A stretch of 64,000 nt of DNA from Armatimonadota bacterium (GCA_050942735.1 JBMNNW010000004.1:29632-93631); one strand, 5' to 3'; positions 7,075 through 27,252 are shown, counted from the stretch's first letter. Numbers and translations: made by a program. The notes: a model not told the origin generated them from the sequence alone.

Positions 7075-7902
7075 TCACCGATCAGACGAGGGGGGCTCGC
7101 CGGGAGTTCCGTCAGGCGGTATGATGACGATCATGTCGCACATCCAGCGATCACGAAAATGGTCGTACGAGTACGTCACTGAGCCTGCAAGAGGATCGCC
7201 CACCGTGATCTCATCACCCTCGATCGACAACACGAGTGCAGAGTGTGCCACCGTTCGGGTGAGCTTCCATCCGATGAGGACGGGCTTCGGCGCGGCCGCG
7301 AGATCCTCGCGGGAGGCGGGTCTGACGGCGTACGCATCGAGGCCGGCGTGGTGCAACGCTCGAAGCATCCCGCGGGTGCTGGTGCCACGCAGGGGGGCGG
7401 TCACGGCCAGTTCAGCCATCTGCCGCTCGGAGGCCGGGACGCCGTGCAGGCGGGCGGCCCAAGCCAGGGCAGCGGCTCCGCATGACCAGCCGGTTGACTG
7501 CATTACCTCCGGGGGACCTTCGGTGCTGGCCGAAAGCTGACCGGAGAAATGTGGCAGCGGGAGCGGGGCGGCGAGTTCGGCGATGGCGTAGAGACTGAAC
7601 ACCGCAGCGATGGTGCCGACCGCGAGCCGGACCAGTCGCCGGTCGAGCCGGCGCACGCAGATTGACAGCAGAAGGACGATGGACGCGTAGAGTGGCAGCC
7701 GCTCGAAGAAGAGCGCATCGTCCCATGGAACGATCCTCAGGGCCACGTATGTCAGCTGGTATCCGGCAAACCACGCGCCGATGGTGATGAGGCTGGCGAC
7801 AGCGGTCGCGATGAAGCGCCGATCGCCATCCGCCAGCCACGGACCGAGGCGCCACGCAGCGGCGAGCAGGAAAACCCCGAGGACCGTCGCAATGATGGCC
7901 AC
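7075..7902 (-). CDS. Membrane protein with C-terminal peptidase C39-like (papain-fold Cys peptidase) domain, no ABC transporter domain
   Basis: N-terminal about 4 TM helices. C-terminal Q..SCGAAALAWAARLHG motif matching the C39 catalytic Gln/Cys region, followed by His/Asp region (AHSALVL...GDEITVGDP). Confidence 0.6.
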   Translation of the reverse strand: MAIIATVLGVFLLAAAWRLGPWLADGDRRFIATAVASLITIGAWFAGYQLTYVALRIVPWDDALFFERLPLYASIVLLLSICVRRLDRRLVRLAVGTIAAVFSLYAIAELAAPLPLPHFSGQLSASTEGPPEVMQSTGWSCGAAALAWAARLHGVPASERQMAELAVTAPLRGTSTRGMLRALHHAGLDAYAVRPASREDLAAAPKPVLIGWKLTRTVAHSALVLSIEGDEITVGDPLAGSVTYSYDHFRDRWMCDMIVIIPPDGTPGEPPSSDR

Positions 7903-7954
7903 CGGGAGATCACACGTCCCTTCGCTGCGCGGAGACGGTCGTGTTCGCCATCGG

Positions 7955-11103: not shown

Positions 11104-11224
11104 CTCAGGGCCACCCGACCGATGGCGAGAGCGCACGGAGCTGCTCCGGGAAGGCAGACGGCATCCGTGCGCCACTCGATCGCGATTCCCTTCGGAATCG
11201 CAGGCAAAGAAACATGCGCTGCCA

Positions 11225-12505: not shown

Positions 12506-12703
12506 GTGCGAGCGCCTCCCTCAAAGTCCTGGGCAACCTCGCCGGCCGTCCGCCCCTCGCGGCCTGCGATGCTGACGCGGTGAGCTTACGTCGCATTCTT
12601 CGAGTAACCGTCAATGCCCTCCACGGCACCCTGACACGTTCACTCCACACTAAGCACGTCGCCCGCGGGCAGCTTTCCGGGAAACGTCCTCCGATCCCGG
12701 CGG

Positions 12704-13588
12704 CTACCCTCCCCGGCGAAGACCGACTCGAATGTCGTGCGCGAGGAGCCGTGCGGCGTAGCCGAGCCTCAGCAGCGCGATCGCGCCCTGATACTTCCAC
12801 CACGCCATCCTCCCCCGGTAGTGCTTGCGATAGAATCTCAGAAAGCTCCGATGCGACTCTCTGAGCATCCTTCGACGCACCTGACCTGTGGAGGCCCCTC
12901 CGACATGATCCATCGACGCCTCCGGCGTGAACCAGACCTCCCAGCCGGCATCCCACAGCCGCTTGCACAGGTCCACGTCATTGAAGAAGATCGGGAACTG
13001 CTCGTCCATCACGCCCATCTCCTTCAGCGCCTCCCCGCGGACGGTGATTGCGGACGCCATCGGTTGATCGACGGTCCGCTCATCGTCGTAGTTCCACCAG
13101 GTCATCCGGTATTTCCCGAACCTTCGGCTGCGCGGGAAGAGTCTGCTCAGTCCGAGAGCTTCATAGAGGACCACGTCGGGCGTCGGAAAGCTCCGGCAAC
13201 TCGCCTGCACCGAGCCGTCGGGGAGGATCAGTCGCGGAGCGACCGCGCCCGCCTGCGGATGGCTCTGCAAGAATCGCGCCAGCGTGTCTAATGCACCCTC
13301 ATGCACCACGATGTCAGGGTTCAGCAGCAGCAGGTGCTCGCCACGCGCCAGCGCGATCCCCTGGTTGTTCGCCGCCGCGTAGCCGCGATTGTCATCGTTC
13401 GCGATCAGCGTCACGTCCGGGTACCGCCGGGCGACCATCTCCGCGGTCCCGTCGGCAGATGCGTTGTCCACTACGATGACCTCCCGCGTCACCACATCGG
13501 GAGCATGATCGATGCTCCGCAGACAGGCGTCAAGGTAGTCTCGCGTGTTCCATGACACGATGACGATCGAGAGAGTCGGCCCGCTCAT
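12704..13588 (-). CDS. Family 2 glycosyltransferase (GT-A)
   Basis: LSIVIVSWNTRDYL...VVDNASADGT N-terminus with DxD-type motifs. Start overlaps the stop of the upstream GT4 (ATGA). Confidence 0.85.
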   Translation of the reverse strand: MSGPTLSIVIVSWNTRDYLDACLRSIDHAPDVVTREVIVVDNASADGTAEMVARRYPDVTLIANDDNRGYAAANNQGIALARGEHLLLLNPDIVVHEGALDTLARFLQSHPQAGAVAPRLILPDGSVQASCRSFPTPDVVLYEALGLSRLFPRSRRFGKYRMTWWNYDDERTVDQPMASAITVRGEALKEMGVMDEQFPIFFNDVDLCKRLWDAGWEVWFTPEASMDHVGGASTGQVRRRMLRESHRSFLRFYRKHYRGRMAWWKYQGAIALLRLGYAARLLAHDIRVGLRRGG

Positions 13589-14733
13589 ACTCGCGCCACC
13601 GCCCGCTCGTAGCCCGCGATGGTCCTCCGTGCTGTCTCCTCCCAGTCAAACGCACTCAGCCGGGCCAGCCCTCGCGCGGAGAGCGCGGCGCGCAGGTCCG
13701 CGTCGTCCAACAGACGCAGAAGGCCGTCGGCGATGGCATCCTCGTCACGCGGGTCCACCAGCACTGCGGCATCCCCCACGACCTCCGGCAGCGCCGAAAG
13801 GTTCGCGGCGACCACCGGTGTCCCGCACGCGAAGGCCTCCAGCACCGGGATCCCGAAGCCCTCATAGAGCGAAGGGAAGAGGAAGACGTCCGCGCCGGCG
13901 TAGAGACTCGGCAGGTCTGCGTCCGCGACGTACCCGATCGGCTGCACGTCCTCTCCGGCCGCGTCGATTGCCCGCTCGGTCTCGCCCGCCTGCCAGCCAC
14001 GCTTCCCGACGATCACCAGCCGGTGCGGCAGGCCCTCCCGTGACCTGGCTGCTGAGAAGGCGCGGATCGCGCGTGGGAGGTTCTTGCGCGGCTGTCGCAC
14101 CCCGACGAAGAGCACGTAGGGTTGCCGGACCCCGTGATGCTCGAGCACCTCCGGCACGCGCTGAGGGTCGGGCGGCCCGAAGCCTGGAGGCAGTGCGTTG
14201 TGTGTCACCGTGATGAGGTCGGGTTCAACGCCGTAGACCGCCTCAATGTCCGCGCGGGTACACTCGGATACCGCAAAGACGTGCCGCGCCACGGGCAGTG
14301 TTGCGCGCAGGCCCAGGTCGAGCACGAGTCGATCCTTCAGCGAGAACCACTCAGGAAAAAGCCGGAAGCTGATGTCATGCACGGTCGTTACGAGCGCCGG
14401 CCTGCTGATGCGCGGACCGTTGTACTGCACGTGCAGAACGTCCAGGCCCAGTTCGCGCGCGGCGCGGGGCAGCGCCAGCAGCGTCCAGAGCCGCGAGTTC
14501 CTCGCGGAGATGACCTGCGTGCGCCAGCCCTCGAGCAGTCTTCCGCCACGTATGCAGGGCAGGTCGCCGGGCGGCTCGCGGTCGAAGAAGAGCACGAACT
14601 GATGCTCCGTCCCCCCGCCATCTCGCACGCGAGCGAGGCCGTCGATCAGCCCCAGTGTGTAACTGCGGTCGCCGGTCTTGGGGTAGGAGACCGCGCGGGC
14701 GTCGATCCCAATGCGCAGGCTCCGATGATGCAT
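13585..14733 (-). CDS. Family 4 glycosyltransferase (GT-B, GT1 superfamily)
   Basis: C-terminal EGFGIPVLEAFACGTPVVA motif characteristic of GT4 enzymes. 382 aa. Confidence 0.85.
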   Translation of the reverse strand: MHHRSLRIGIDARAVSYPKTGDRSYTLGLIDGLARVRDGGGTEHQFVLFFDREPPGDLPCIRGGRLLEGWRTQVISARNSRLWTLLALPRAARELGLDVLHVQYNGPRISRPALVTTVHDISFRLFPEWFSLKDRLVLDLGLRATLPVARHVFAVSECTRADIEAVYGVEPDLITVTHNALPPGFGPPDPQRVPEVLEHHGVRQPYVLFVGVRQPRKNLPRAIRAFSAARSREGLPHRLVIVGKRGWQAGETERAIDAAGEDVQPIGYVADADLPSLYAGADVFLFPSLYEGFGIPVLEAFACGTPVVAANLSALPEVVGDAAVLVDPRDEDAIADGLLRLLDDADLRAALSARGLARLSAFDWEETARRTIAGYERAVARV

Positions 14734-14734
14734 C

Positions 14735-15700
14735 TCAGACCTCCCGGCCCCTCGTGGCGAAGAACGTCTCTTCCATCGCGATGGCGGTCTCGGCCACCCT
14801 GAAGTGAAGCTCGTGGTCGCTGATCAACTCGCGCTGCTCCCCGAGCACGGGCGCCATGATGTTCCAGAAGCTTCCTCGCAGCAGCCCGCCGGACATCACC
14901 AGCAGCCTCTGGGCCACCTCGGCGAGGTGCCCGTAGTGCTTGCCGAAGAAGCGGAAGGTCGCCCGGTGCGAGGCGATGATGCGGTCCTCTGAGGCGTCGG
15001 CCCAGCTTCCGGCCTCATGGTGCATGATCTCGGCGGAGGGCAGGTACCAGCGGTCGTAGCCGGCCTGCGCGAGACGGTGGCACCAGTCAACATCCTCAGC
15101 GTACATGAAGTACCCCTCATCAAGCGGCCCGACACGTTCCCAGACCGCCCGCGTCGTTGCAATGCACACGCCTGAGAGCCAGTCCACCGGCCGCGGCTCG
15201 GCGTGGTCCCACCACGTCATGTCATACGCGCCGAAGATGCGGCTGCGCGGAAACGCTCGATGCAGGCCAAGCTGGGCCACGAAAGTCAACCACGGCCGCG
15301 GGAATGCGTGACAGGTGTGCTGCAGGCGGCCATCAGGGCCGCGAACCGCCGGACCGCACGCCCCCACCTCGGGCCGCTCCCGAACGAAGCGCGCAAGCCT
15401 CTCCAGCGAGTCGGGGCCGACCTCCGTGTCGGGGTTCAGCAGCACAAAGGTGTCGGCGGCGGCCTGCTCGACCGCCAGGTTCGTCCCGCCCGCGAAGCCG
15501 AGGTTCTCCTCGCTGGCGACGGTCCGCACCTCCGGGAAGTCGGCACCGAGCATCTCCACGGTCCCGTCCGCCGAAGCGTTGTCAACCACGATGATCTCGA
15601 CCACGAGGGCTCCGGCTGTCCGCTCGATGCTCCGGAGGCACTCGGCGAGCAGTTCGCGGCAGTTGTAGGAGACGATACAGACGGACAGGTCGGCGCTCAG
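14735..15700 (-). CDS. Family 2 glycosyltransferase (GT-A), probable non-ATG (CTG) start
   Basis: Reading frame is open upstream of the first ATG and encodes the canonical GT2 N-terminus LSVCIVSYNCREL...VVDNASADGT. A CTG at 15700-15698 overlaps the TGA of the upstream gene (CTGA). Confidence 0.75.
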   Translation of the reverse strand: MSADLSVCIVSYNCRELLAECLRSIERTAGALVVEIIVVDNASADGTVEMLGADFPEVRTVASEENLGFAGGTNLAVEQAAADTFVLLNPDTEVGPDSLERLARFVRERPEVGACGPAVRGPDGRLQHTCHAFPRPWLTFVAQLGLHRAFPRSRIFGAYDMTWWDHAEPRPVDWLSGVCIATTRAVWERVGPLDEGYFMYAEDVDWCHRLAQAGYDRWYLPSAEIMHHEAGSWADASEDRIIASHRATFRFFGKHYGHLAEVAQRLLVMSGGLLRGSFWNIMAPVLGEQRELISDHELHFRVAETAIAMEETFFATRGREV

Positions 15701-16187
15701 TCGGATCGCCCCCCGGCTTCACCACGGCGAGTGAGCTGCTCAACGATGGCGTCACAGATCTCGCGCACCGCGCCGAATCCCCCGGGGCGGCGCGTGACCC
15801 AGTCCGCCTCCTCCCTCACCACGTCCACCGCGTCGGCCACGGCCACTCCAAGCCCCACCATGTGCAGAGCGGGCAGGTCGCTGATGTCGTCGCCGACGTA
15901 GACCGCACTTTCGGCCGGAAGCCCCGTCTCCTCAAGCAGTTCGCGCACGGCGGTCTGCTTGTCCATCCGGCCGAGCACGACGTACTGTATCCGCAGCACG
16001 TCGCAGCGCGCGGCACTGATCGCCGACTGATCGCCGCTGACCACCGCCGTCGGGAAGCCCATCTCGGCCAGCCGCACCAGCCCGAGGCCGTCCTTCACGT
16101 CGAATCGCTTCATCGCCTGCCCCGAAGCGTCGAAGTACATTCCTCCGTCGGTCATCACACCATCACAATCAAGCATCAGGATCCGCA
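15697..16187 (-). CDS. HAD-IIIA KdsC/YrbI-type sugar-acid phosphate phosphatase
   Basis: LMLDCDGVMTDG...KDG...GDD.SD...GAVRE motifs of 3-deoxy-manno-octulosonate-8-phosphate phosphatase family. The long ORF (to 16521) overlaps the neighbouring gene, so start is placed at VRILM. Confidence 0.75.
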
Positions 16188-16235
16188 CCGGGTCGGGCAG
16201 CGGAATCCGCGCACCGCAGACCTCTGTCACTGGAT

Positions 16236-17867
16236 CTATCCTCCATCCGTCAGGCAAAAGACGTAGAGCAGGGACACTCCGTGCTCCTCGACGGTCCCGC
16301 AGGGCTCCCGCGTGGCAAGCAACCGCCGGGAGTGCGGTGAGAACTCCGTGCTCTTGTTCTGAAAGACTGCGTAGTCCGCCCCGGCAATCGCCGCTTCCCC
16401 CGCGGTTGTGCGGATGTCGCCGCGCATGATGCCGAGATGCTGGTACATGCGCATCGTCGCCTCCACCCCCGGCGGCTCGATCCACGCGACCGCTCCCGGC
16501 GGAGCGTATTCGTTGAGCCACAGCGCCGCGTCGAGATAGGTCTCTCCCCAGTATGTCGGCTCCATCCCAGCCTCCGACGCCCCGGGGAGACCGCCGATCA
16601 GCATGTTGTAGTAGCTGAGTTGATGGGGATGGTAGCTCAGGACTGCCCGCAGCGGGAGAGCGAGTACAAGCGCCAACACCACGATCGCCGCGATCTGCGG
16701 CAGCCGCTCCCCCACCTCGACTGCCCGCTGCTCCAACTCCGCCCGCGCCGCCCGCGCCACCCAGCCGATCCCCACTCCGGCCAGCAGCGCGATCAGCGGG
16801 AAGACCGGCTGGAAGAGCCGCACCCCATTGTACTTCGGGGTCCCCGGCAATGAGTTAAGCACGAAGTTGATCAGCAGCGCCCACCCCAGGAGCGCTCCGA
16901 GCGCCTTCCGCTGAAATGCCTCATCGGCCCAACGCTCGCGCAGTCCCGCCAGATCTCCTGCCACTGATTCCGTGAGAGTCCGCGCGGCACCTGCAAGCGC
17001 GGCCAGCAAGGTCACGACCGGCGTGGTGATCGAGGTCATCACGATCGGGTAGTGCCACGGAGCGGGCGCATAGCGCTCGCCGAAGTACGTCACGTGAATC
17101 TGCCAGTGCCGAAAGTGAAAGGCCATGTACGCTCCAAGCCGCGTGATCGTGTCGTACCACAGCCACGGCCACGTGACCACAAACGTCAGCGGCCCCACCG
17201 TAGCGCCACAGACGACCGCGCGAATGAGCGTGTCTCGGGCATAGACCGCCATCCATGGCACGACGATCAGGGGGATGAAGAACGCGTTGACCTTAATGCT
17301 CAGCGCCACTCCCCAGACGGCGGCCGCGGCGGCTGCCCATCCCCAACTTCTGTGCCGCGCCGCGAGGAAAAAGAAGCTCAGTGAGATGAACGTCGCGGCC
17401 ATCACGGGCGCATCGAGGGCGAAGAGATGGGCGTGCGCGAAGGTGCGCGGCAGCGTCATCAGCGCGCCCACCGCCGCGACTCCCTCCAGCCGCCCCCACA
17501 CCGATGACGTCAGCAGGTAGAGCACCGCGCACGCCGCGCCCACCAGCAGATGGGTCCCAAAGCGCAGCGCGGCGAGGGTCGGCAGCACACCCGCCACCAG
17601 CGGCGTCGTCACCGCGCCCCACGTCTTGATGAAGCCCGGCTGCTGCTCGCTGCGCGCGTCCCAGTAGCGACGGATCCCCTCCTCACTGAACGCGGCCCCC
17701 GGATCGATCGTCACCAACCGCAGCCACGCGGACGCCTCCTGCATCCGCCCCATGTACACGGGCTCATCGTAGCCGAGCCCGTAGCTGTGCGCGGTCGTCG
17801 CGAGGATCACGACGACCACCGCGAAGACCGCACCCGCCTCGAGTCCTCGACGCAGTCTCAGGCTCAT
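16236..17867 (-). CDS. GT-C fold membrane glycosyltransferase, ArnT/PMT (GT39/GT83)-like
   Basis: About 11 TM helices with periplasmic loops, typical of polyprenyl-P-sugar-dependent transferases. Start ATGA-overlaps the upstream YfhO stop. Confidence 0.7.
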   Translation of the reverse strand: MSLRLRRGLEAGAVFAVVVVILATTAHSYGLGYDEPVYMGRMQEASAWLRLVTIDPGAAFSEEGIRRYWDARSEQQPGFIKTWGAVTTPLVAGVLPTLAALRFGTHLLVGAACAVLYLLTSSVWGRLEGVAAVGALMTLPRTFAHAHLFALDAPVMAATFISLSFFFLAARHRSWGWAAAAAAVWGVALSIKVNAFFIPLIVVPWMAVYARDTLIRAVVCGATVGPLTFVVTWPWLWYDTITRLGAYMAFHFRHWQIHVTYFGERYAPAPWHYPIVMTSITTPVVTLLAALAGAARTLTESVAGDLAGLRERWADEAFQRKALGALLGWALLINFVLNSLPGTPKYNGVRLFQPVFPLIALLAGVGIGWVARAARAELEQRAVEVGERLPQIAAIVVLALVLALPLRAVLSYHPHQLSYYNMLIGGLPGASEAGMEPTYWGETYLDAALWLNEYAPPGAVAWIEPPGVEATMRMYQHLGIMRGDIRTTAGEAAIAGADYAVFQNKSTEFSPHSRRLLATREPCGTVEEHGVSLLYVFCLTDGG

Positions 17868-20248
17868 CCACCCCGCCTCCACGTCAGCGCCGCGCCCGCA
17901 ACCGCGCCGAGCGCCGCCAGTGCCAGCAGGGTGCCGAACATCCCGAGCCGGAAGCTCGCGGGCAGATACACGAAGCGCACCTCGCGCGTGTCCCGGTCAG
18001 GGTGAACCGCTCGCCGCACCAGATCGGCGGGCACCACCCTCGTCTCCGCACCGTCAGCGAAGGCCCGCCAGCCGGGGTAAGCGACGTCCGCGAGCACCAC
18101 CCACGAACCTGCCCGCATCTCGCCTGTGATGAGGACTGAGTTCGCCCGGTAGTCGGCGATGGTCAACTCCGGCCGCTCCCCGGCCGTCCAGCGGCCGGCC
18201 TCACCGACCACTCTCGCGACGAGCGGATCTCCGCCCTCAACGATCTCGTCGAAGACGGCATCCTCATCAGGCATCGGCCGCACTTCGGACGGCACGAAGG
18301 CTCGCGGCACGGCCTCCTCGTTCTCGTAGAGCCGTGTCTCCGTCAGCGCCTTCAGCCGCCAGCCGTCGCTGGTGACCGGCACGGTGGCCGAGAGCCAGCG
18401 CACCGCCATGAAATCCACCAACGCGGAGTCAGGGTCCACCTGCTCATATCCGAACCGGTCGGACTGCGCCTCGGACAGCAGGCGGTGGTAGGGCGCGTAG
18501 ATCAGCGAGTCCGAGCCCTGCGCGGATTGGAGATCAAGGATCATGTGCGAGTTCGGAGAGACGCGGTTCAGGAAGTCCGGTCCGACCGTGGCCATCCGTT
18601 GCGGCCCCTCGACCTCGTGAATCCGTGCCACCAGCTCCGGCGCCACCGACAGGTAGTCGGTTCGCCCGGCGGGAGTGAACTTCACCGCGAAGTACCCAAG
18701 GTCCAGTGCGACCACCAGTGCCAGCGCATACCACGCCCACCGCGTTCGCTGCCCAGCACCCAGCGCGATCAGCGCCCAGCTTGCGACCAGCAGCCCGCCA
18801 AAGCGCGCGATCTGCGCGAGCGTGTAGCCGCCGAGGTCAAGCCGCACACCTGCCGCCTCCGCGGCCGCCTCGAGTCCTCCGGTGTACACCCACGTCGCTA
18901 GTCCGCCGCCGAGCCCTCCCAGCAGGATAACCACTGCCGCGCCGGATACCACCCTCCGTGCGCGATCATCGTTCCGCATCTGCATCAGCGTATCCGCGCC
19001 CAGCCCCGCGAGGACCGCCCCGGCGGTGCATGCCAGAACCACCGCCCTCCCGACACCGGTCAACTGCGTATACCCCGGGATCGCGGCCCGGAAGAGCGCG
19101 TTGAGCGGCGTCCCGAACGCCAGCCCCACCGCCAGCGCGAAGACTCCCAGCCAGAACCAGCGCTGCCCACCGGGTCGCAGACCCACCGCGGCGACCGCCA
19201 GCAGCAGCGGCGCGACTCCGATGTACCACGCTGTCTCAATGTAGCTGCGATCCGCTCTGCCGGAGAAACTCGTGCCCCAGTGATTGCTGTCCACGGGGTT
19301 GCCGAACACATCGGGCATCAGCAGGATCAGCAGCTGCTGAGCGGCGAGACCGTTGCTCACCTGGTCCGCGTAGCTCGCACCTCCGACGCGGTAGTTGAGC
19401 CGCACCATCTCCAGCGAGGGGCCAAGCTGGCACCCGGCCAGAGCGATGCCGCCGACCGTGGCTGCGATGACCAGCAGCCCGTAGCTCGCGGTTCGGGCCT
19501 TGCCGCGCTCTCGCATCGTGCCCAGCAGGCGGAAGAGCGCATACCCGGCGAGCGCCACGAGCACGTAGATGGAGATCTGCAGATGCCCGGCGAGAAACTG
19601 CATGCCCACGGCCAGCATCGTCAGGCCCAGCCAGCACGCCCGCCTCCGTTGCACCGTCAGCTCCACTCCGACGAGCGCCAGCGGCAGCCACGCGGCCACC
19701 GAGCGCAGCGACGGGAAGGTCAGCCAGCCGGTGAAGAACCCGCTGAGCATGAACGTGACCCCGCCGATCGCCCCCGCAAGTGGTGTCACGCCCAGCACCC
19801 TGAGCAGCAGGTACATCCCCCAGCCCGCGATCAGGTAGAACGCGAATGTCGCCCAGCCGAGGGCTTTGAGCGGGTTGATGACGTAGTGCAACCATGTCTC
19901 CGGATAGAAGATCGCGGACTGGCCGTTGCCGACGAACGGGGTGCCACAGAGCATCTGCGTGTTCCACAGCGGCACCTCGCCCTGCCGCACCACCCGCGAC
20001 GCGTGCAGCCGCCACGGGTAGAACTGCTGAACTGCGTCGAGGATCGGGTTGCGCACAGGCTCAGCGTCCGGGAACTCCGCCGCATGCGCCCGCCACGGTT
20101 GGAAGCGCAGGTAGAGTTCGGTCGGCAGCAAGGCGCGCGGCCCGACCGTCACCTGCCACGTCACGCCGAGCGCGACGGCCGCAATGAAGGCAAGCGCGAG
20201 GACATCGCGACGCAGGCACGCCCGCTCTGAGTTACGTGCATCACTCAT
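17864..20248 (-). CDS. YfhO-family polytopic membrane protein (GT-C-type glycosyltransferase)
   Basis: 794 aa. N-terminal motif QFYPWRLHA...WNTQMLCGTPFVGNGQSAIFYPE typical of YfhO. Many TM helices followed by a large extracytoplasmic C-terminal domain. Confidence 0.75.
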   Translation of the reverse strand: MSDARNSERACLRRDVLALAFIAAVALGVTWQVTVGPRALLPTELYLRFQPWRAHAAEFPDAEPVRNPILDAVQQFYPWRLHASRVVRQGEVPLWNTQMLCGTPFVGNGQSAIFYPETWLHYVINPLKALGWATFAFYLIAGWGMYLLLRVLGVTPLAGAIGGVTFMLSGFFTGWLTFPSLRSVAAWLPLALVGVELTVQRRRACWLGLTMLAVGMQFLAGHLQISIYVLVALAGYALFRLLGTMRERGKARTASYGLLVIAATVGGIALAGCQLGPSLEMVRLNYRVGGASYADQVSNGLAAQQLLILLMPDVFGNPVDSNHWGTSFSGRADRSYIETAWYIGVAPLLLAVAAVGLRPGGQRWFWLGVFALAVGLAFGTPLNALFRAAIPGYTQLTGVGRAVVLACTAGAVLAGLGADTLMQMRNDDRARRVVSGAAVVILLGGLGGGLATWVYTGGLEAAAEAAGVRLDLGGYTLAQIARFGGLLVASWALIALGAGQRTRWAWYALALVVALDLGYFAVKFTPAGRTDYLSVAPELVARIHEVEGPQRMATVGPDFLNRVSPNSHMILDLQSAQGSDSLIYAPYHRLLSEAQSDRFGYEQVDPDSALVDFMAVRWLSATVPVTSDGWRLKALTETRLYENEEAVPRAFVPSEVRPMPDEDAVFDEIVEGGDPLVARVVGEAGRWTAGERPELTIADYRANSVLITGEMRAGSWVVLADVAYPGWRAFADGAETRVVPADLVRRAVHPDRDTREVRFVYLPASFRLGMFGTLLALAALGAVAGAALTWRRGG

Positions 20249-22164
20249 CGCCGAGCCTCCTCGGTCGCGGGCGCAATCGTGGCGCCCGGTGGCGTAAGAC
20301 CCGGTCGAAACGCATACACGGTCACGTCGCCGTCCTCGAACACCGGAAGCAGAAAGCTTCTCGTGGTCTCGCGGAACTCGGCGGCCGGGTCATCAGGCGG
20401 CACGTTCTCCGACGCGAGCATCATCTGTTCCGCAAGCAGCGCCTCACGCGGTCCGTAAAACACGTAGCCTGCGCCGATCGCCTCCAGCGCCCCGCGCAGC
20501 ACCTGCGGGCTCCGCCCCGGCAGAAGGAACTGCCCGACGTAGTCCACGGCCCGCCCGAACTCCAGCGTCTCAGCCCAGTGACCCGCGAACACGAGGCACG
20601 AGGCCCGTGGCGGAATATGACTGCCCGTCAGCGACGATGACAGAACGATCTCATCCTCGCCTGCCTCCCGCGCGAGGTGGTTGATGCCGCGCACCTCCTC
20701 GAAAGTGAGGAACATCGGCGGCTGCAGGTAGGCCAGCAGATCGGCGTTGTTCGTGCGCACATGATGCAGGCAATCACTCACGAAGAGCGCGTTTGACGGC
20801 ATGCTCAGGACCACCGCCAGCGCGATCAGCAGACCGACTCTCGCGGCGGGGGGCCGCTCCGGGTCGCCGCCGTCGCGCGCGCGCGTCCCCGCCGGGAGCA
20901 CGCGCTGCTCGGCCCGGCCTCGCGCCCCCTCGCCCGCTGACGAGGACAGCCGTGGCGCAATCACCAGCGCCAGCCCCATCGCCGCGAGCAGGCACAGCGG
21001 CATGTGCAGGCCCTCCGCCATCTTCCGCTGGAAGCTGAAGAGCGGCTCCCAGTGAAACTCCGGCGCGGCCACCGGCTTCACCGCGTAGAGCAGGACCACG
21101 TTCGTCACAACCCAGCAGACCGGCAGCATCAGCCTGGGGCTGTCGCGCCACTGCCTCACGGCGTACCATGCCCCGGGGATCGCGAGCAGCAGGATCAGCC
21201 CGTACCCGGCCGCCATATCCAGCGCAGGCGGTGACAGCGTCGCCGTCTCCACCTTGGCCATGTATGAGGGGTCCTGATTTGCCGCCCACAGCGCCCACAC
21301 GGGCGAAGGCAGCGCGATCACAAACGCCACCGCGTAGAGCGCGGCGGCGTGGCCGAGACGAAGATGTCCCCGCACCACGCTCAGCAGCCCGAATGTCACG
21401 ATCGTCGCATGCAGAACAAAGAGGTCGTACCCGTGCACGTTGCCGATCAGAAGCAGCAGCATGCCCGTGATCGCGGCCCAGCCGAGACTTCTACGCTCGA
21501 GCGTCACCATCGCCGCGATCAACACCGCGCACATAAGCACCATCGACCAGACGAAGAGCGGGTTGAGCAGCAGCGACAGGAACGTGACGGCCTCAGGCTG
21601 CACCTGCCACGTCTGCGGCGGCAGCGGCGCGTAGTCGGGTGGGCGAAGCGGAAGAGGCGCGTGATCGGGGATCGTGCTCGCCCACGCCGCCGCGAGCCAG
21701 CCGAAGCCCGAGCCCAGTGACGCGAGAGCCAGCGCGCCCCATCGGACCGCCCTCGAGCGCGAGATGAACGCGGCCAGCAGATAGATCGAGACGAGCAGCA
21801 CGATGCCGCCCGCCAGACGCGCCGCGTGGAAGACGATCGCCGGATGCTGGCCGGTCCACGCCGTGACTTTCCCGAGGGAGACCAGAAACGCGTTGAAGAA
21901 GTGGGGGTTTTGCGGCAGCGTCGTGTACTGATTGCGCAACAGCACGCGGCCCTCGGCCGCCTGCCGCATCCACGACAGGTACACGTTGCCGTCATCGACG
22001 CCCCAGATGAAGCCCTGGAACTGCTCGCCCTCCGCCGCCTGTCCGACAGCCCAGACGTAGGGCAGCGCGGTCAGTGCCATGATCAGCACCGCCCACGCGA
22101 TCACCGGCGCGATCTCGCGCCAGGTCACCATCGGCCCCCGCTCCTGGTTCGCATCCCGCGTCAT
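20245..22164 (-). CDS. Polytopic membrane protein, probable GT-C-type glycosyltransferase (unclassified)
   Basis: About 12 predicted TM helices with a conserved acidic loop (GVDDGNVYLSWMRQ). Embedded between the radical SAM and YfhO genes with 2-4 nt spacing. ATG 22164 lies 2 nt after the upstream stop. Confidence 0.5.
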   Translation of the reverse strand: MTRDANQERGPMVTWREIAPVIAWAVLIMALTALPYVWAVGQAAEGEQFQGFIWGVDDGNVYLSWMRQAAEGRVLLRNQYTTLPQNPHFFNAFLVSLGKVTAWTGQHPAIVFHAARLAGGIVLLVSIYLLAAFISRSRAVRWGALALASLGSGFGWLAAAWASTIPDHAPLPLRPPDYAPLPPQTWQVQPEAVTFLSLLLNPLFVWSMVLMCAVLIAAMVTLERRSLGWAAITGMLLLLIGNVHGYDLFVLHATIVTFGLLSVVRGHLRLGHAAALYAVAFVIALPSPVWALWAANQDPSYMAKVETATLSPPALDMAAGYGLILLLAIPGAWYAVRQWRDSPRLMLPVCWVVTNVVLLYAVKPVAAPEFHWEPLFSFQRKMAEGLHMPLCLLAAMGLALVIAPRLSSSAGEGARGRAEQRVLPAGTRARDGGDPERPPAARVGLLIALAVVLSMPSNALFVSDCLHHVRTNNADLLAYLQPPMFLTFEEVRGINHLAREAGEDEIVLSSSLTGSHIPPRASCLVFAGHWAETLEFGRAVDYVGQFLLPGRSPQVLRGALEAIGAGYVFYGPREALLAEQMMLASENVPPDDPAAEFRETTRSFLLPVFEDGDVTVYAFRPGLTPPGATIAPATEEARR

Positions 22165-22166
22165 GA

Positions 22167-23534
22167 TCAGAACCTCTGAATCTTCAGCAGAGCCTTCCGA
22201 ATGCCGGAGACACCCAGCACCGACTGTATCGTCCGCCACAGCCGCTTCGGCCCGAGGTAGAACTTGACGTAACCCAGGCGCCTGAGTCGATTGAGCGTCT
22301 TCGCCGGGAGAACCTGCTCGCTCTCGTAGACCGGCGACTTGTAGTAATCAAAGTGCGAGAAGTCGGCAGCAATCATCTCGCGCGTCATGTCGTAAAGATG
22401 CGTGTGAGGCAGCGGCGTCGTCACGCTGAATGTAACGTCGTCAAGCGGGAGGTCATTCGCAAGCTTGATGCTCGCCCGCACCTCCTCCTCGGTCTCAGTC
22501 GGCGCGCCGAGCATGAAATACCCTCGCACCTTCAACCCGAGGTCGCTCGCCACCTGCGTCGTCTCGCGCACCTGCTCGATCGTGATGCCCTTGCTGTACA
22601 CCTCGTCGAGCACTCGCTGAGACGCCGACTCGATCCCCACGTGCACCATCCGAAGCCCGGCCTGCTGCATGATCTCGAGACTCTCGCGATCGCAGACATC
22701 GGCGCGGATGTTGCACCCCCAGATCAGCCCGAGATCAGCCTCGATGAACTGCTCGCACAGCCGCCGCATCCAGCCGCGGTCCAGCAGAAACGTGTCATCG
22801 AGCCACATGAGCCCCTCGATGCCAAAGCGCTCCCTGAGCTCGGCCGCCTCGGCCACAAGCGACTCGGGCGAGCGCCGTCTGACGCGCCTCCCGAAGATCG
22901 TCCCCAGCGTGGGCTGGCAGTATGAGCAGTGATAGGGGCAGCCCCGCGACGCCATGATCGACGTCCCCCGCACACCGTAGCGCACCGCGTCGAGCTGGTA
23001 CCACAGTGACAGGTAGCCCTCCATGTCGAGCAGGTCCCATGCGGGGAATGGGAGCGCATCAAGATCGACGACCGCGTCGCCCCGTTCATTGCGGACGATC
23101 TCCGCGCCCCGCATGTACCAGACCCCGGGCTGCTCCTCGAGCCTGAGCCCTGACTCAACCAGGCGCGGAAGCGTCTCCTCGGCCTCGCCGAGCATCACCG
23201 CATCGAACGCTCCCGTGCCGAGCGTGTGCTCGGGCGCGACGGTCGGGTGCGGCCCCCCGGCCACAACCATCGTCCCCGGGCTGACCTCGCGCACCAGCCC
23301 CCCGATCGCCGCGGCATCGGCGATCATCGACGTCAATACGCTTATACCGACGAGATCGTAGCGCTCGCGCTCGAGCAACTCCCGCAACGCGCGCATCGGC
23401 CGCCGCACAAAGGTCGCATCGAATATCTCGACATCGTGACCCCGCTCACGCAGCACGGCCGCCAGATACGCCACTCCCAGTGGGGGATCCCCCGACGGGT
23501 ACTTGAAACGCGGGAAGACCAGCAGTGTCCTCAA
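22167..23534 (-). CDS. B12-binding domain radical SAM enzyme
   Basis: N-terminal cobalamin-binding Rossmann domain (LLVFPRF...LGVAYLAAVLRERGHDVEIFD). Radical SAM CxxxCxxC (CPYHCSYC). 455 aa. Confidence 0.85.
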   Translation of the reverse strand: MRTLLVFPRFKYPSGDPPLGVAYLAAVLRERGHDVEIFDATFVRRPMRALRELLERERYDLVGISVLTSMIADAAAIGGLVREVSPGTMVVAGGPHPTVAPEHTLGTGAFDAVMLGEAEETLPRLVESGLRLEEQPGVWYMRGAEIVRNERGDAVVDLDALPFPAWDLLDMEGYLSLWYQLDAVRYGVRGTSIMASRGCPYHCSYCQPTLGTIFGRRVRRRSPESLVAEAAELRERFGIEGLMWLDDTFLLDRGWMRRLCEQFIEADLGLIWGCNIRADVCDRESLEIMQQAGLRMVHVGIESASQRVLDEVYSKGITIEQVRETTQVASDLGLKVRGYFMLGAPTETEEEVRASIKLANDLPLDDVTFSVTTPLPHTHLYDMTREMIAADFSHFDYYKSPVYESEQVLPAKTLNRLRRLGYVKFYLGPKRLWRTIQSVLGVSGIRKALLKIQRF

Positions 23535-23536
23535 TC

Positions 23537-25735
23537 TCAGTTATCTCTCCTGGTGCGTCGCCCTGCCGGAAGCGCCGCGGCCGCGATGACCGCGGCCAGC
23601 AGTCCCAGCGATGTGAGCGCGAAAAAGCACCCGGCGCGCACGGTCGCGGGCTCAAATACAAGACGCACCTCGGTCTCACCACCCCGGGTGCTCACGCCGC
23701 AGAAGGCGCCGAAGACCTGCATCACCTCGCGGCGCTCACTATCGACGTAAGCGTTCCAGCCGGGGTAGAAGGTTTCCGTGATGCACAACGTCCCCTGCGC
23801 GGCCGCCGCGGGAATATGAACTCGCATGACGCCGTTGCCGGTGCGCTCCCATCGCGCGGGGCCTGTCTCCAGAAGCGCCACCTCGCCCTCCGCCTGCAGT
23901 GCCACCGGATCGATCGTGTCCACCGTGAACGCCCGCGGCAACACCGGAGCGACCTCATACACCGCCACCCGCCCGTGGCTGCTCCGCAGGGTGACCGTCT
24001 GATCGGCCGATCGAATCGGCGGCCGTCTGTGCGCAAGCACCGTGCCCACACCCGCAAGCATCTGCCCGGAGCCGGTCGCCTGCTCGGACAGCAGCATGTT
24101 GCCGTTCACCGCAGGGGCCAGTTCGTCGCCTTCAGCCCGACTGAGGTAGGCGCGGTAATCCGTCACCATCAGCGAATCATAGCCGCCGATGCTGTCGTAT
24201 CCGTAGACGGTGGCCGCGTTCGGCGGCAGCACCGCGTGCGGAGCCCGCGCCATCCCCCACTCCTCCCGCGGCGTCACCTCCAGCACCCGCCCCTCCGCCG
24301 CCATGAGCCGCTCGATCGCCGGTGTGACCGGATACAGATGCTCGCGCCGGGTCCTCGGGAGGAACTCGTGCGCCCACGGCAGCAGCTCCCACGCCAGCAC
24401 CACCAGCAGGACGGCGCAGATCCCCGTCGAAGCCGTCAGATTCCACGGGCAGCGCCCCTCCAGTCGGCACGCATCCTCCCGCTCCCGCAGACGCCTGCAG
24501 ATCCCCTCAAGCCCCCACGCCGCGGCCATCGCAGCGGCGAACGTGAACACTGAGAGCATACGCGCGAAGCTCCCGGCCTGCCCCAGCCCCGGCACATGGA
24601 AATACATAAGCCTGGCAAGTGGGCCCGCTGAGGCCAGATGAAGGGCCCCCAGCGCAAGTAGCGCGAAGAAAACGAAGTGCCGCGTTCTGCAGAAGAAGAT
24701 CCCCGCGATCGCCAGCAGCAGCGTGACAATCCCGACGAAGCCGCAGTGCTCGGAGTAGGGGATCCCGGCGGGCGTGAGCTGGTGGTCACCATGCGCGGGA
24801 TTTCCGAACGCGTCGGGATCGAGGAACGCGATCCACTCCCATGACTGCAGGGCCAGACGCTCGTGGAACTCCCAGCCCGCCTCCGAAGGCCCGCCGTGGC
24901 CGCGCGGGGAATTCGCCGCCAGCTCAAGCGTCGGCAGGACCTGCGGTGCCGCGAGCAGAAGCCCCAGTCCCACCGCTGCAAGCAGCGCGGGCATCCTTGC
25001 GGGCCGGTGGTGAGCCGCCTCCCACAGCGCCCGGGCAAGCGCGTACAGCGCCGCGCTCATCCACACATACGCCGCGATCTGAAAGTGCCCGGCCAGCAAC
25101 GTCATCGCCAGCGACACGCTCAGCACCGGCACACCCCACCTGCTGCGCGCAAAGACCAGGACAACTCCCAGCAGCGCCCCAGGCAGCCACGCCGCCGAGT
25201 TCATCAGGGTCGGCAGTTCAGTCCACGTCACCATGAACCCGCCGAATGTGAACGCCACGGCAGCAAATGCCGCCGGCAGACGCCCGAGACCAAGGTTCCG
25301 ACAGAGAAGAGCGGTGAGGACCGCGGCGAGCGCGTAGTGAAGAGCGGCGAGCAGCCCCATCCCCCACGCGACATCGACCACCGCGAGTATCCAGTTCGGC
25401 GGATAGAAGAGCGCTAACTGCCCGTTCCCCACGATAGGATAGCCGCACATCTGGTGGGGATTCCACAGCGCCAGCTCTCCAGCTCGCAGGGTCCGCGCCG
25501 CAAAAAGCCTCCAGGGGTAGAACTGGGCCACTCCGTCCCAGAGCAGCGGAGACCACTGGCGATCCGTCCCGGGGAGATCGGCCTCGCTCGCCCACGGCTC
25601 CATCTGCGACTGAAAGCCCGCGGCCAGCGGCGCGTGGGGCCCGACCACGCAGTCGGCCCAGAACGCGCCCGTGAGGACGACGAGTCCGGCGATGAGGGCG
25701 ATCGTTGGGTAGCGGCGGGCCACGTCCGTGCTCAT
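23537..25735 (-). CDS. YfhO-family polytopic membrane protein (second copy)
   Basis: Motif QFYPWRLFAARTLRAGELALWNPHQMCGYPIVGNGQLALFYPP parallels the first YfhO. ORF opens at a TTG (25771), so the internal ATG (MSTDV) is the likely start. Confidence 0.75.
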   Translation of the reverse strand: MSTDVARRYPTIALIAGLVVLTGAFWADCVVGPHAPLAAGFQSQMEPWASEADLPGTDRQWSPLLWDGVAQFYPWRLFAARTLRAGELALWNPHQMCGYPIVGNGQLALFYPPNWILAVVDVAWGMGLLAALHYALAAVLTALLCRNLGLGRLPAAFAAVAFTFGGFMVTWTELPTLMNSAAWLPGALLGVVLVFARSRWGVPVLSVSLAMTLLAGHFQIAAYVWMSAALYALARALWEAAHHRPARMPALLAAVGLGLLLAAPQVLPTLELAANSPRGHGGPSEAGWEFHERLALQSWEWIAFLDPDAFGNPAHGDHQLTPAGIPYSEHCGFVGIVTLLLAIAGIFFCRTRHFVFFALLALGALHLASAGPLARLMYFHVPGLGQAGSFARMLSVFTFAAAMAAAWGLEGICRRLREREDACRLEGRCPWNLTASTGICAVLLVVLAWELLPWAHEFLPRTRREHLYPVTPAIERLMAAEGRVLEVTPREEWGMARAPHAVLPPNAATVYGYDSIGGYDSLMVTDYRAYLSRAEGDELAPAVNGNMLLSEQATGSGQMLAGVGTVLAHRRPPIRSADQTVTLRSSHGRVAVYEVAPVLPRAFTVDTIDPVALQAEGEVALLETGPARWERTGNGVMRVHIPAAAAQGTLCITETFYPGWNAYVDSERREVMQVFGAFCGVSTRGGETEVRLVFEPATVRAGCFFALTSLGLLAAVIAAAALPAGRRTRRDN

Positions 25736-25854
25736 GCGCTGGATTATACGCCAATGAGGGCTCGCGCACAAAGTCGAGACCTCAGCCGGGGTGCGACCAG
25801 ATCATGTGGGTGACGACGGCGACCTTCCCCGCCCTCACAGACACCATTCGGGCA

Positions 25855-26006
25855 CCCCCTCCCTGTGAGTTCGCTATGCGAACTTCGGCGGGAGGGGGAA
25901 TGAGTCCGCGTTCCGACCTGTCAAAGCCCTCTCGCATCTCCGGTTGCGCACCCCCCCTCTCCCGCCTGACGCATTTCGTGTATGCGTCCAGCGAAAGGGG
26001 GGCGCG
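25855..26006. other. Two tandem C/G-clamped hairpins in the 300-bp spacer between the ArnE-like gene and the YfhO operon
   Basis: Hairpin 1: CCCCCTCCC...GTTCGC-tat-GCGAAC...GGGAGGGGG (25855-25900). Hairpin 2: GCGCACCCCCCCT...GACGCAT-loop-ATGCGTC...AGGGGGGCGCG (25948-26006). Same nested-stem architecture, different inner stems. Confidence 0.4.
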
Positions 26007-26070
26007 GCCGACGTGAGCCCCTGGCCCCAGCAACCTGCAGAATACGGTCAGCCCCCCCTCAGCCGCCCTT

Positions 26071-26511
26071 TCAGGAGACGCCGGGGTCGGTCGGAGCCTG
26101 GATCGAGATGTGAGGCGTCCTCTCGGCCTGCATGGCCTCGGCCCGGTAGCTTGCCGCGACCGTGAACACGCCCGCCAGTATCAGCGCCAGCCCGATGAGG
26201 CGCAGCAGCGGCAGGGTCTCGTTGAGCAGATACCACGACAACACTGTGACCATCACAAAGCTCAACGCCACGAAGGGATACGCGTAGCTGAGATCAAGTT
26301 TCGAGAGCACGTTCAGGTAGATCAGTGAACTCAGGCCGTAGAAAACGAAGCCCCCGAAGACGAATGGGGTGAAGATGCCCTTGATGACGGCAAGCGGTGA
26401 CGCGCCCTCCCCCAGAAGCGTCACTCCGTATTTCAGGCAGAGCTGCCCGGCCGCCCCGAGTGAGACCGAGACGAGCAGCATGATGATTGCGCCGATGGGC
26501 ATCGGGTTCAC
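26071..26511 (-). CDS. Small 4-TM EamA/SMR-like transporter, ArnE-like polyprenyl-phosphate-sugar flippase subunit
   Basis: LLVSVSLGAAGQLCLKYGV closely resembles the ArnE N-terminal AGQLCQK region. Four hydrophobic helices, about 125-145 aa. GGGGAG RBS before ATG. Confidence 0.65.
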   Translation of the reverse strand: MNPMPIGAIIMLLVSVSLGAAGQLCLKYGVTLLGEGASPLAVIKGIFTPFVFGGFVFYGLSSLIYLNVLSKLDLSYAYPFVALSFVMVTVLSWYLLNETLPLLRLIGLALILAGVFTVAASYRAEAMQAERTPHISIQAPTDPGVS

Positions 26512-26619: not shown

Positions 26620-27252
26620 CTACGCGAGAAGCTCAGCGACCTTGTCCACGGCGGACGCGGCATCGGGCGCGTAGCCGTCCGCGCCGATCTCGTCGGCGTA
26701 CGACTGCGTCACGGGTGCGCCACCGATGATGACCTTGACCTTATCCTTCAGGCCGGCCTCCACCAGCGCGTCCACGGTGTCCTTCATCGACGGCATCGTG
26801 GTGGTCAGCAGCGCCGAAAGGGCGATGCAGTCCGCGCCCTGCTCGCTGGCGGTTGAGACGAACTGCTCGGGCGACACATCGACCTCGAGGTCGATCACGT
26901 CGTAGCCGCCTCCCTCGAGCATCATCGCAACGAGGTTCTTGCCGATGTCATGCAGGTCGCCCTTGACTGTGCCGATGACGACGGTGCCCTTCGGCTGCAT
27001 CTCGCCCTCGGTCAGCAGGGGCTTGACATGCCCCATCGCCGCCTGCATCGCACGGGCTGCGATGAGCACCTCCGGAACGTAGAACTCGTTGTTCTTGAAC
27101 TTCTCGCCGACCACGCTCATGCCCGCGATGAGCCCGTCATTGATGATCGTGCTCGGCTTGATCCCTTCGTCAATGGCCTTCTGAGTCAGCGCCTCCGCCT
27201 CGTCCTTCTGACCATTGATGACAGCATCCGCCAGTGCCTGCAGGTCCGCCAT
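26620..27252 (-). CDS. Corrinoid (cobalamin)-binding protein, MtbC/MtmC/MttC-like
   Basis: N-terminal helical B12-binding_2 cap and Rossmann B12-binding domain with DxHxxG motif (DLHDIGKN). 210 aa. GGGAGG RBS. Confidence 0.85.
   Translation of the reverse strand: MADLQALADAVINGQKDEAEALTQKAIDEGIKPSTIINDGLIAGMSVVGEKFKNNEFYVPEVLIAARAMQAAMGHVKPLLTEGEMQPKGTVVIGTVKGDLHDIGKNLVAMMLEGGGYDVIDLEVDVSPEQFVSTASEQGADCIALSALLTTTMPSMKDTVDALVEAGLKDKVKVIIGGAPVTQSYADEIGADGYAPDAASAVDKVAELLA

Follow-up and report, generated by a model that had tools for sequence, protein, structure and literature searches.

The 64-kb window examined here, that is, the entire stretch GCA_050942735.1 JBMNNW010000004.1:29632-93631 from an Armatimonadota bacterium (65–69% G+C; all coordinates count from the start of the window), contains a dense array of glycosyltransferase genes around a gene for a radical SAM enzyme with a B12-binding domain (rSAM). 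We interpret this array, with a probability of roughly one half, as a lineage-conserved envelope-glycosylation operon composed of two modules, residing in a metagenome-assembled genome (MAG) related to the class Zipacnadia, in which rSAM would tailor a lipid-linked sugar before the latter is flipped across the membrane and transferred by glycosyltransferases of the GT-C type. The most informative result is that the association of rSAM with GT2 glycosyltransferases and GT-C proteins extends across phyla.

Open reading frame (ORF) listing and family scans place all genes of the cluster on the minus strand. Nine of them form a block at 12704–25735 and encode, in operon order, YfhO1, rSAM, Munk, YfhO2, a PMT_2 protein, a KdsC-type phosphatase and three further glycosyltransferases, GT2a, GT4 and GT2b; the gene for a small protein with four transmembrane segments, SMR, lies upstream. 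From YfhO1 to GT2b, the eight junctions measure +2, +2, −4, −4, +5, −4, +1 and −4 nt, the four overlaps comprising three of the ATGA and one of the CTGA type. Nine co-directional genes with gaps of no more than 5 nt that are syntenic in about 28 Armatimonadota MAG loci are far beyond what chance would produce. Gene order, coordinates and compactness had been given correctly in the initial annotation of the window, including the CTGA overlap. Its range of spacings (−4 to +2 nt) captured the tight overlaps but not the largest gap of +5 nt, and its coupled operon of ten genes has to be reduced to nine, because the upstream gene proved to be uncoupled.

The central enzyme, rSAM (22167–23534, minus strand, 455 aa, TTG start), has both domains that had been proposed for it, namely B12-binding (PF02310, 83.2 bits) and Radical_SAM (PF04055, 91.4 bits), and its C199-x3-C203-x2-C206 motif is invariant in 15 diverse orthologs. 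The N-terminal B12-binding domain together with the CxxxCxxC radical SAM core predicts an enzyme of the cobalamin-dependent (class B) type; AprD4-type relatives of rSAM do not bind cobalamin. A profile scan of a genome collection with an rSAM alignment yielded 80 loci (designated by L numbers below), and the proteins of the window were then compared by tblastn. Orthologs of about 455 aa (42–50% identity) are present in Woesearchaeota, Undinarchaeota, Methanobacterium, Nitrospira, Myxococcota, Deltaproteobacteria, Fibrobacterota, Fermentibacteria and unclassified MAGs. Their annotated neighbours are small GT2s, PMT or PMT_2 proteins, unannotated polytopic proteins of 400–770 aa, pairs of EamA proteins of about 120 aa and other glycosyltransferases. 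Among the 242 genes located at most three genes from rSAM, 44 encode large polytopic membrane proteins, compared to 7 of the 193 genes at a distance of more than five genes (odds ratio 5.9, p = 1.6e-6).

Twelve loci, which represent at least five lineages, encode a GT2 of 230–330 aa on the same strand 0–90 nt upstream of rSAM. This partner GT2 is 35–42% identical over its full length to a DPMS-like GT2 of 255 aa whose gene directly follows that for Munk in six Armatimonadota loci (L007, L008, L010, L025, L027 and L028). The Armatimonadota protein (L008:13232-13996) reaches 80 bits with the DPMS model, 57 with ArnC and 54 with GtrB, and the partner GT2 also matches PgfS (its best NCBIfam match), PpgS, dolichyl-phosphate hexose transferase and AglJ, from which it is predicted to be a polyprenyl-phosphate sugar synthase. 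The conserved unit thus consists of a donor-synthase GT2, rSAM and a GT-C protein, often accompanied by a small protein with four transmembrane segments. When the Munk profile was aligned by hhalign with the proteins encoded downstream of rSAM in Fibrobacterota and in an archaeon, no similarity was detected; the GT-C partner of rSAM is therefore not a single family across phyla.

The make-up of individual loci bears on a first alternative, i.e., a pathway for a membrane-lipid head group of the HpnI/HpnK/HpnJ or calditol type, in which the GT2 would glycosylate a lipid and rSAM would turn the sugar into a cyclitol by ring contraction, giving a glycolipid for the GT-C enzymes to elongate or use. 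In Candidatus Sabulitectum (Fermentibacteria; L070, 8691–18129), the genes are arranged in the order PMT_2 – rSAM – YdjC deacetylase – PMT_2 – GT9 – second B12-rSAM (30% identical) – GT2 with transmembrane segments – Bac_transf priming transferase. Here rSAM is followed by a protein of the HpnK family, YdjC, and, four genes on, by the membrane-bound GT2, so that all three HpnI/K/J-type functions are found in one place. In one deltaproteobacterial and one Fibrobacterota locus, YdjC is replaced by a class-I methyltransferase, and in the other Fermentibacteria context (e.g., L051, L053 and L068) two rSAMs are paired and no GT-C candidates are encoded nearby. HpnJ, acting after the GT2 HpnI and the YdjC-type HpnK, and the calditol synthase Cds are B12-type radical SAM enzymes that work on lipid-anchored sugars and are proposed to contract the ring of lipid-linked hexoses (PMC13459092), and HpnJ is the top NCBIfam match of rSAM. 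The score of 176 bits is, however, far below the cut-off of 577.6 and equal to that for BchE (174.9, cut-off 481), which argues against a specific relationship. Moreover, the 64-kb window contains no hopanoid genes, the partner GT2 is nearer to polyprenyl-phosphate sugar synthases than to HpnI, and the presence of four GT-C enzymes plus a flippase points to a carrier lipid that donates the sugar and not to a terminal head group. We consider a head-group pathway quite improbable.

Among the archaeal loci, L083 (Woesearchaeota, 1–19368) and L084 (archaeon, 1–19368) contain up to three B12-rSAM genes amid genes for small GT2s, unannotated polytopic proteins of 510–580 aa, proteins of about 115 aa with four transmembrane segments, GT9, GT4 and PMT. 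L084 additionally encodes a UbiA prenyltransferase and an adjacent EamA-like pair of 116 and 124 aa.

The rSAM and Munk sequences of the window are identical to those of proteins from an Armatimonadota MAG. Closer to the genome studied here, the relatives are labelled Armatimonadota, candidate division WS1 or Candidatus Zipacnadia and share the order priA-def-fmt-TPR-RACo-corrinoid protein-SMR-YfhO1-rSAM-Munk-YfhO2-PMT_2-KdsC-GT2-(GT4)-GT2, which holds even where the membrane proteins have only 38–45% identity. Every Armatimonadota locus with sufficient contig contains SMR-YfhO1-rSAM-Munk, with YfhO1 and Munk flanking rSAM. Three loci (L022, L026 and L029) have this core alone, and in L033, whose rSAM is 50% identical, the order is SMR-rSAM-Munk-YfhO. 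An ortholog of GT4 is found in the closest relatives only, while L007 and L008 have a different, distantly related GT4 and L012-type loci have none. The operon is accordingly made up of a conserved core, SMR-YfhO1-rSAM-Munk, and an accessory module, YfhO2-PMT_2-KdsC-GT2-(GT4)-GT2.

A number of observations speak against the interpretation given at the outset. The upstream housekeeping genes priA-def-fmt are as syntenic as the array itself, so that gene order within the lineage is on its own weak functional evidence. The loci compared are not phylogenetically independent, with related Fermentibacteria loci inflating the statistics, and 12 of the 40 informative loci, mostly of one Fermentibacteria type, contain no GT2 and no large membrane protein at a distance of up to three genes from rSAM. 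All 35 NCBIfam matches of rSAM, including the tied best ones HpnJ and BchE, stay below their cut-offs, and AprD4 acts on a soluble aminoglycoside. An ortholog of the DPMS-like polyprenyl-phosphate GT2 is present neither in the operon nor elsewhere in the 64-kb window, and the step that makes the donor is therefore only presumed for this genome. Finally, the cluster contains no gene for an acceptor, Wzx/Wzy, an ABC exporter or a priming phosphoglycosyltransferase.

Some of these points can be read as indicating an ordinary lipopolysaccharide (LPS) or exopolysaccharide locus, in which the rSAM, KdsC and GT-C genes are mere neighbours with independent functions. Gene order in the lineage is indeed conserved well past the cluster, through priA-def-fmt, and the accessory genes differ between loci. 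Such an explanation is nevertheless highly improbable, as eight junctions of at most 5 nt, half of them overlapping, indicate co-translation and the association of rSAM, GT2 and GT-C recurs in unrelated phyla as well as in archaea.

The relationship with AprD4, which is the closest sequence in the PDB (6fd2, E 8e-27) and the closest solved relative of rSAM, leads to a further alternative. Here, rSAM would act on a soluble precursor, either a sugar phosphate or a nucleotide sugar, dephosphorylation by KdsC would follow, and the Leloir enzymes GT2 and GT4 would incorporate the modified sugar into the glycan. This route corresponds to the modified, possibly C-methylated or ulosonic, sugar of the initial annotation. 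In agreement with this, Fom3 and OxsB-type B12-rSAM enzymes use nucleotide-linked substrates (PMC9204698), and the phosphatase scores above its subfamily cut-off, has intact motifs and is translationally coupled within the operon. On the other hand, KdsC is missing from L022, L026, L029 and L033 and from all rSAM neighbourhoods outside Armatimonadota, so that rSAM is not dependent on it; the partner that recurs across phyla is a polyprenyl-phosphate GT2 and not a nucleotidyltransferase or phosphatase; and the cluster lacks KdsA, KdsB, NeuB and a GT30/GT99/GT107-type transferase. We regard a soluble substrate of rSAM as unlikely. As regards the tailoring of a lipid-linked sugar, which we prefer, MoeK5 provides a point of reference: this enzyme methylates a lipid-linked sugar in moenomycin biosynthesis. 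In sequence networks, MoeK5 groups with HpnJ and Fom3 (PMC9204698). The C-methylated sugar suggested in the initial annotation would be plausible.

Each of the four large membrane proteins could be assigned to the GT-C enzymes, just as had been claimed. Simple hydropathy counts gave 9–11 transmembrane segments across the four, with at least nine each in YfhO1 and the PMT_2 protein. YfhO1 (23537–25735, minus strand), a member of the core, matches Pfam YfhO (PF09586) with 48.9 bits (cut-off 28.5) over the N-terminal 210 profile positions, and Asp67 in its first loop (W-D-x-x-A-Q-x-Y-P-W-R) is invariant in 22 orthologs. YfhO2 (17864–20248, minus strand; accessory module) was assigned by paralogy, since its own Pfam scan did not report YfhO at E ≤ 0.01 and returned only DUF7657 with 20 bits, under the cut-off: an alignment with YfhO1 over 431 aa shows 35% identity (E 8e-50), and PF09586 is present in most of its 423 detected homologs. 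Some of these homologs (P0333, P0334, P0338, P0341 and P0348) are fusions of about 1330–1385 aa in which a flippase domain of the Wzx/MurJ/MATE type (PF01943, PF13440, PF03023) is joined to YfhO. These fusions are consistent with the use of flipped lipid-linked donors by YfhO enzymes. The accessory PMT_2 protein (16236–17867, minus strand; ArnT/PMT-like) passes the Pfam PMT_2 cut-off narrowly (28.7 versus 26.1 bits), has the motif Y33-D34-E35 in loop 1 invariant in 12 orthologs and gives no NCBIfam match at E ≤ 0.01, and thus none to the ArnT equivalog.

The third gene of the block encodes Munk (20245–22164, minus strand, 639 aa; core), for which sequence searches gave no match in Pfam, NCBIfam or, in a profile search, PDB sequences, and none with the PMT_2 protein in BLASTP. 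A Pfam scan of 14 orthologs revealed weak DUF6541 similarity in three only. Since no Pfam or NCBIfam family covers Munk, its assignment required structure prediction. About 157 homologs were found, and the named ones are all ‘hypothetical proteins’ of Armatimonadota. An AlphaFold2 model based on an alignment of 38 homologs reached a predicted local distance difference test score (pLDDT) of 88.3 and a predicted template modelling score (pTM) of 0.89. In Foldseek searches of the PDB with this model, 27 of 27 matches at E ≤ 1e-3, and likewise all of the top 35, are GT-C proteins. The best match is AftA (8if8, E 3e-9, template modelling score 0.52–0.54), followed by STT3/AglB/PglB, DPY19, ArnT and AftD. 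Asp57 and Asp58 are invariant in a first-loop motif, G-V-D-D-G-N-V-Y, after the first transmembrane segment. On the strength of the predicted fold, Munk can be assigned with confidence to a new, AftA/STT3-like family of GT-C enzymes that appears to be specific to Armatimonadota and is recognised by no profile library. The catalytic motifs of the enzymes in the cluster are intact.

The identity of these GT-C proteins raises the possibility that the system glycosylates envelope proteins, in analogy to O-mannosylation or PgfS/PgfM, with the PMT_2, YfhO and STT3-like enzymes modifying Ser, Thr or Asn residues of secreted or membrane proteins. The PMT_2 domain and its D-E motif resemble those of protein O-mannosyltransferases, the fold of Munk is nearly as close to STT3/AglB/PglB as to AftA, and PgfS, the best NCBIfam match of the partner GT2, belongs to a streptococcal protein-glycosylation system. 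Yet, the cluster has no gene for a candidate acceptor protein; the likeness of Munk to oligosaccharyltransferases is one of fold (9–15% identity, not detectable by sequence); and the PMT_2 family is broad and also takes in ArnT-like lipid A transferases. In addition, KdsC in the operon and the LPS genes reported for the lineage (PMC10290634) favour a glycolipid. In our view, protein glycosylation has a small chance of being correct.

The flippase in our preferred scheme would be SMR (26071–26511, minus strand), a half-size protein of the SMR/DMT type with four hydrophobic segments that is a putative ArnE/ArnF-like flippase for polyprenyl-phosphate sugars. It matches Pfam EamA with 29.4 bits (cut-off 28.2), and its top NCBIfam matches are ArnF (48.7, cut-off 99) and ArnE (39.6, cut-off 92), both below the equivalog cut-offs; SMR is a single gene and not one of a pair. 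Its designation as ArnE-like is borne out insofar as these are its closest families. In 22 Armatimonadota loci, a conserved SMR gene precedes the cluster. It is separated from YfhO1 by 335 nt in the genome studied here, compared to about 20–55 nt in close relatives, and is therefore not coupled to YfhO1. The spacer (25736–26070, minus strand) is particular to this genome, with only its last ~40 nt common to relatives. It contains the sequence TTGTGC-17-TATAAT, which ends 8 nt before the ATG of YfhO1 and would, if it served as a promoter, render the transcript nearly leaderless. A search of the spacer and the window against Rfam at gathering thresholds gave no matches, cobalamin riboswitches included, and no tRNAs were found. 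An origin of the spacer from a repeat or mobile element was rejected, as neither the window nor the loci compared contain another copy.

The remaining products, i.e., the phosphatase, GT2a, GT4 and GT2b, have no transmembrane segments according to the hydropathy count. The phosphatase (15697–16230, minus strand, 177 aa, GTG start) is a HAD-IIIA sugar-acid-phosphate phosphatase of the KdsC/YrbI type. In line with the initial annotation, it exceeds the cut-off of the KdsC/YrbI subfamily model TIGR01670 (127.7 versus 106.95 bits), while remaining below the equivalog cut-offs for KdsC (PRK09484, 145.6 versus 208) and KDN-9-P phosphatase (119.6 versus 180). Matches with KdsC/YrbI proteins in the PDB have E values of 1e-33 to 1e-35, and the HAD motifs D21-x-D23, K91 and G-D114-D115 are invariant. 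For the ulosonic sugar that had been envisaged, this phosphatase is the sole indication: Pfam and NCBIfam scans of the cluster detected no KdsA, KdsB or NeuB and no transferase of the Kdo/sialyl (GT30/GT99/GT107) type, and this part of the initial annotation is not upheld. KdsABCD, KdtA and Lpx enzymes have been reported from Zipacnadia MAGs (PMC10290634). With such a normal Kdo/LPS pathway in the lineage, KdsC may simply serve LPS. The kdsC-type gene overlaps or abuts that for PMT_2 in every locus that has it, and both are missing together from the core-only loci, which hints at a role of KdsC specific to the accessory module.

Of the soluble glycosyltransferases, GT2b (12704–13588, minus strand) matches Pfam Glycos_transf_2 with 75.9 bits; its best NCBIfam matches are MftF, rhamnosyltransferase and EpsD, each under the cut-off, its best PDB match is 6p61, and DPMS reaches just 22.5 bits. 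GT2a (Glycos_transf_2, 57.3 bits) is its paralog. Neither protein gives GtrB or ArnC matches, and both are predicted to be soluble enzymes of the WbbL/rhamnosyltransferase/MftF type and not donor synthases of the CsbB/GtrB type. GT4 (13585–14733, minus strand), the variable member of the cluster, is a GT-B-fold Leloir glycosyltransferase (Glycos_transf_1, 119.8 bits; Glyco_transf_4, 50.8 bits) that resembles MshA, PimA and WaaG in the PDB over the donor-binding half only. GT2a (14735–15700 or 15706, minus strand) has a non-canonical start. Following a stop at 15719–15721, its open frame offers no ATG, GTG or TTG, leaving ATC at 15706 or CTG at 15700; read from the latter, which overlaps the TGA of KdsC, it aligns with GT2b from residue 5 (40% identity). 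Orthologs start with ATG in L003, L007, L008 and L028, whereas the ATC...CTG arrangement is shared by the window, L002 and L006; the ATG of L003 occupies the position of this ATC codon. The unusual start is therefore real and not a sequencing error. The change from ATG to ATC also adds two codons to KdsC. This configuration suggests that GT2a may be translated either from a rare start codon or through coupling of termination and reinitiation.

Comparison with established systems helps to place the operon. ArnC-ArnD-ArnE/F-ArnT and FlmF2-NaxD-FlmK represent parallel schemes. With the Arn pathway and FlmF2/NaxD/FlmK of Francisella, the proposed system would share a lipid-linked sugar, its tailoring in the cytoplasm, an SMR-type flippase and an ArnT-like GT-C enzyme, and YdjC is found beside rSAM in Fermentibacteria. 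There are also differences from the Arn pathway, which had been invoked in the initial annotation: family scans found no ArnA, ArnB, ArnC or ArnD in cluster or window, the four-segment protein and the GT-C are under the ArnE/F/T equivalog thresholds, the single SMR gene contrasts with a heterodimer pair, and the tailoring enzyme is of the radical SAM type instead of a deformylase or deacetylase.

Similarly, the logic of the three-component CsbB/GtcA/YfhO type that had been invoked is recovered as GT2 plus flippase plus GT-C in the rSAM neighbourhoods of other phyla, but not by the GT2s of the operon itself, which are WbbL-like and free of transmembrane segments. YfhO/CsbB/GtcA systems have been described (PMC5836110, PMC8035078). 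Together with GtrA/GtrB/GtrV, PgfS/PgfM and PpgS/Rv3779, they resemble the Armatimonadota system in combining a small, four-segment putative flippase with YfhO or another GT-C protein and, in relatives and other phyla, with a DPMS/GtrB/ArnC-like GT2 encoded in the cluster. They differ in having one GT-C enzyme as compared to four, in lacking a B12-domain rSAM as an integral conserved member, in a flippase of the GtrA/GtcA type as opposed to the SMR/EamA type, and in the donor-synthase GT2, which is missing from the operon studied here.

Systems for pentofuranoses that combine an SMR-type flippase, a HAD phosphatase and GT-C enzymes have also been described (PMC11127046). In mycobacterial arabinogalactan and pentofuranose systems (AftA-D/Emb, Rv3789, Rv3807c or a HAD phosphatase, WbbL/GlfT), soluble WbbL-type GT2s prime the glycan inside the cell and several GT-C enzymes take over on the outside, and the SMR-like flippase, the phosphatase and the fold of Munk, which is closest to AftA, add to the likeness. 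In contrast, the operon contains no UbiA-type phosphoribosyltransferase and no DprE1/2, its phosphatase is of the KdsC/YrbI type, rSAM is present, and the host is an LPS-encoding diderm (PMC10290634). Finally, HpnJ (with HpnI and HpnK), Cds and MoeK5 share with rSAM the B12-binding plus radical SAM architecture and, in part, recurring GT2 and YdjC neighbours. rSAM is, however, not an HpnJ ortholog, its partner GT2 is of the polyprenyl-phosphate type, and the flippase and GT-C genes in the cluster imply that the modified sugar is probably a donor and not a final head group.

A terminator-like hairpin (26618–26603) separates the SMR gene from the gene for a corrinoid protein (26620–27252, minus strand), which is preceded by that for a RACo-type corrinoid activase (27350–29185, minus strand). 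In a scan for internal promoters and terminators, sites were no commoner than in shuffled sequence, and only this hairpin looks meaningful. The corrinoid protein is of the stand-alone kind, consists of B12-binding_2 and B12-binding domains with DxHxxG present, and is accompanied by the reductive activase, with no corrinoid methyltransferase gene alongside. The pair is syntenic in all Armatimonadota loci, including L033, and absent near rSAM orthologs in other phyla. A functional link to the cluster was rejected as unproven, because the whole priA-def-fmt-TPR-RACo-Corr stretch is syntenic and the pair does not occur near rSAM elsewhere.

Further genes of the window deserve brief mention. A PAS/HisKA/HATPase histidine kinase with two N-terminal transmembrane segments is encoded on the same strand (11225–12505), 198 nt downstream of GT2b, with no adjacent response regulator. 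About 14 kb from the operon lie genes for a polysaccharide deacetylase/DUF3473 protein (39663–40574, minus strand) and a PIG-L family de-N-acetylase (40818–41510, plus strand), which are possible candidates for sugar de-N-acetylation, as the operon has no YdjC. A DUF2330 protein (5824–7044) adjoins one whose C-terminal domain is peptidase C39-like (7075–7902), and alanine racemase and a BatA/VWA protein are encoded next; these genes are unrelated to the operon.

According to our preferred interpretation, a GT2 of the DPMS/ArnC/GtrB type, encoded within the cluster in relatives but not in the window, would attach a sugar to polyprenyl phosphate on the cytoplasmic side of the membrane. rSAM would then tailor the polyprenyl-phosphate-linked sugar at the step taken by ArnD or NaxD in known pathways, most likely by C-methylation, with HpnJ/Cds-like ring contraction or AprD4-like dehydration as alternatives. 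SMR would flip the donor over the membrane, and YfhO1 and Munk would pass the sugar on to an acceptor outside the cytoplasm. This acceptor is most likely a lipid-linked glycan of the envelope, either resembling an LPS core or O-chain or of another kind. In the accessory module, YfhO2 and the PMT_2 protein would add further transfers on the outside, and GT2a, GT4 and GT2b, as Leloir enzymes of the cytoplasm, would assemble the acceptor glycan or lengthen it. The role of KdsC may be to provide Kdo if the acceptor is of the LPS type, or else to dephosphorylate a sugar-phosphate intermediate. The occurrence of rSAM relatives beside genes for lipid-linked sugars in many bacteria and archaea suggests an undescribed modification of sugars prior to their attachment to the surface. 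A more far-reaching proposal, which we put forward tentatively and consider rather doubtful in its entirety, is that the rSAM orthogroup of ~455 aa constitutes a hitherto unrecognised fourth component of polyprenyl-phosphate-sugar/GT-C glycosylation in Bacteria and Archaea, which would make a C-methylated or carbocyclic donor from an ordinary lipid-linked hexose or hexosamine that dedicated GT-C enzymes, including Munk, install on the cell surface; in Armatimonadota, the corrinoid protein and RACo might service its cobalamin.

Extracytoplasmic glycosylation via lipid-linked monosaccharide donors underlies serotype conversion by Gtr proteins, Arn-dependent polymyxin resistance, the decoration of teichoic acids, the synthesis of mycobacterial arabinan and protein O-mannosylation. 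To our knowledge, the donor sugars in such systems are tailored, if at all, by enzymes of the hydrolytic or redox kind. A literature search retrieved no paper that ties a cobalamin-type radical SAM enzyme to undecaprenyl phosphate and glycosyltransferases. While multi-component transmembrane glycosylation as such is already known, no description of a conserved radical SAM member was found in the literature, and curated models cover neither rSAM nor the new GT-C family represented by Munk. If our interpretation is correct, the rSAM partner, distributed from Woesearchaeota to Myxococcota, would bring radical chemistry, i.e., C-methylation or carbocycle formation, to lipid-linked donors. The analysis also provides a lead to the function of a large unannotated radical SAM family now mislabelled ‘BchE’ or ‘YgiQ’ and to a GT-C family outside all profile libraries, and the GT2 and rSAM pair represents a testable two-gene system.

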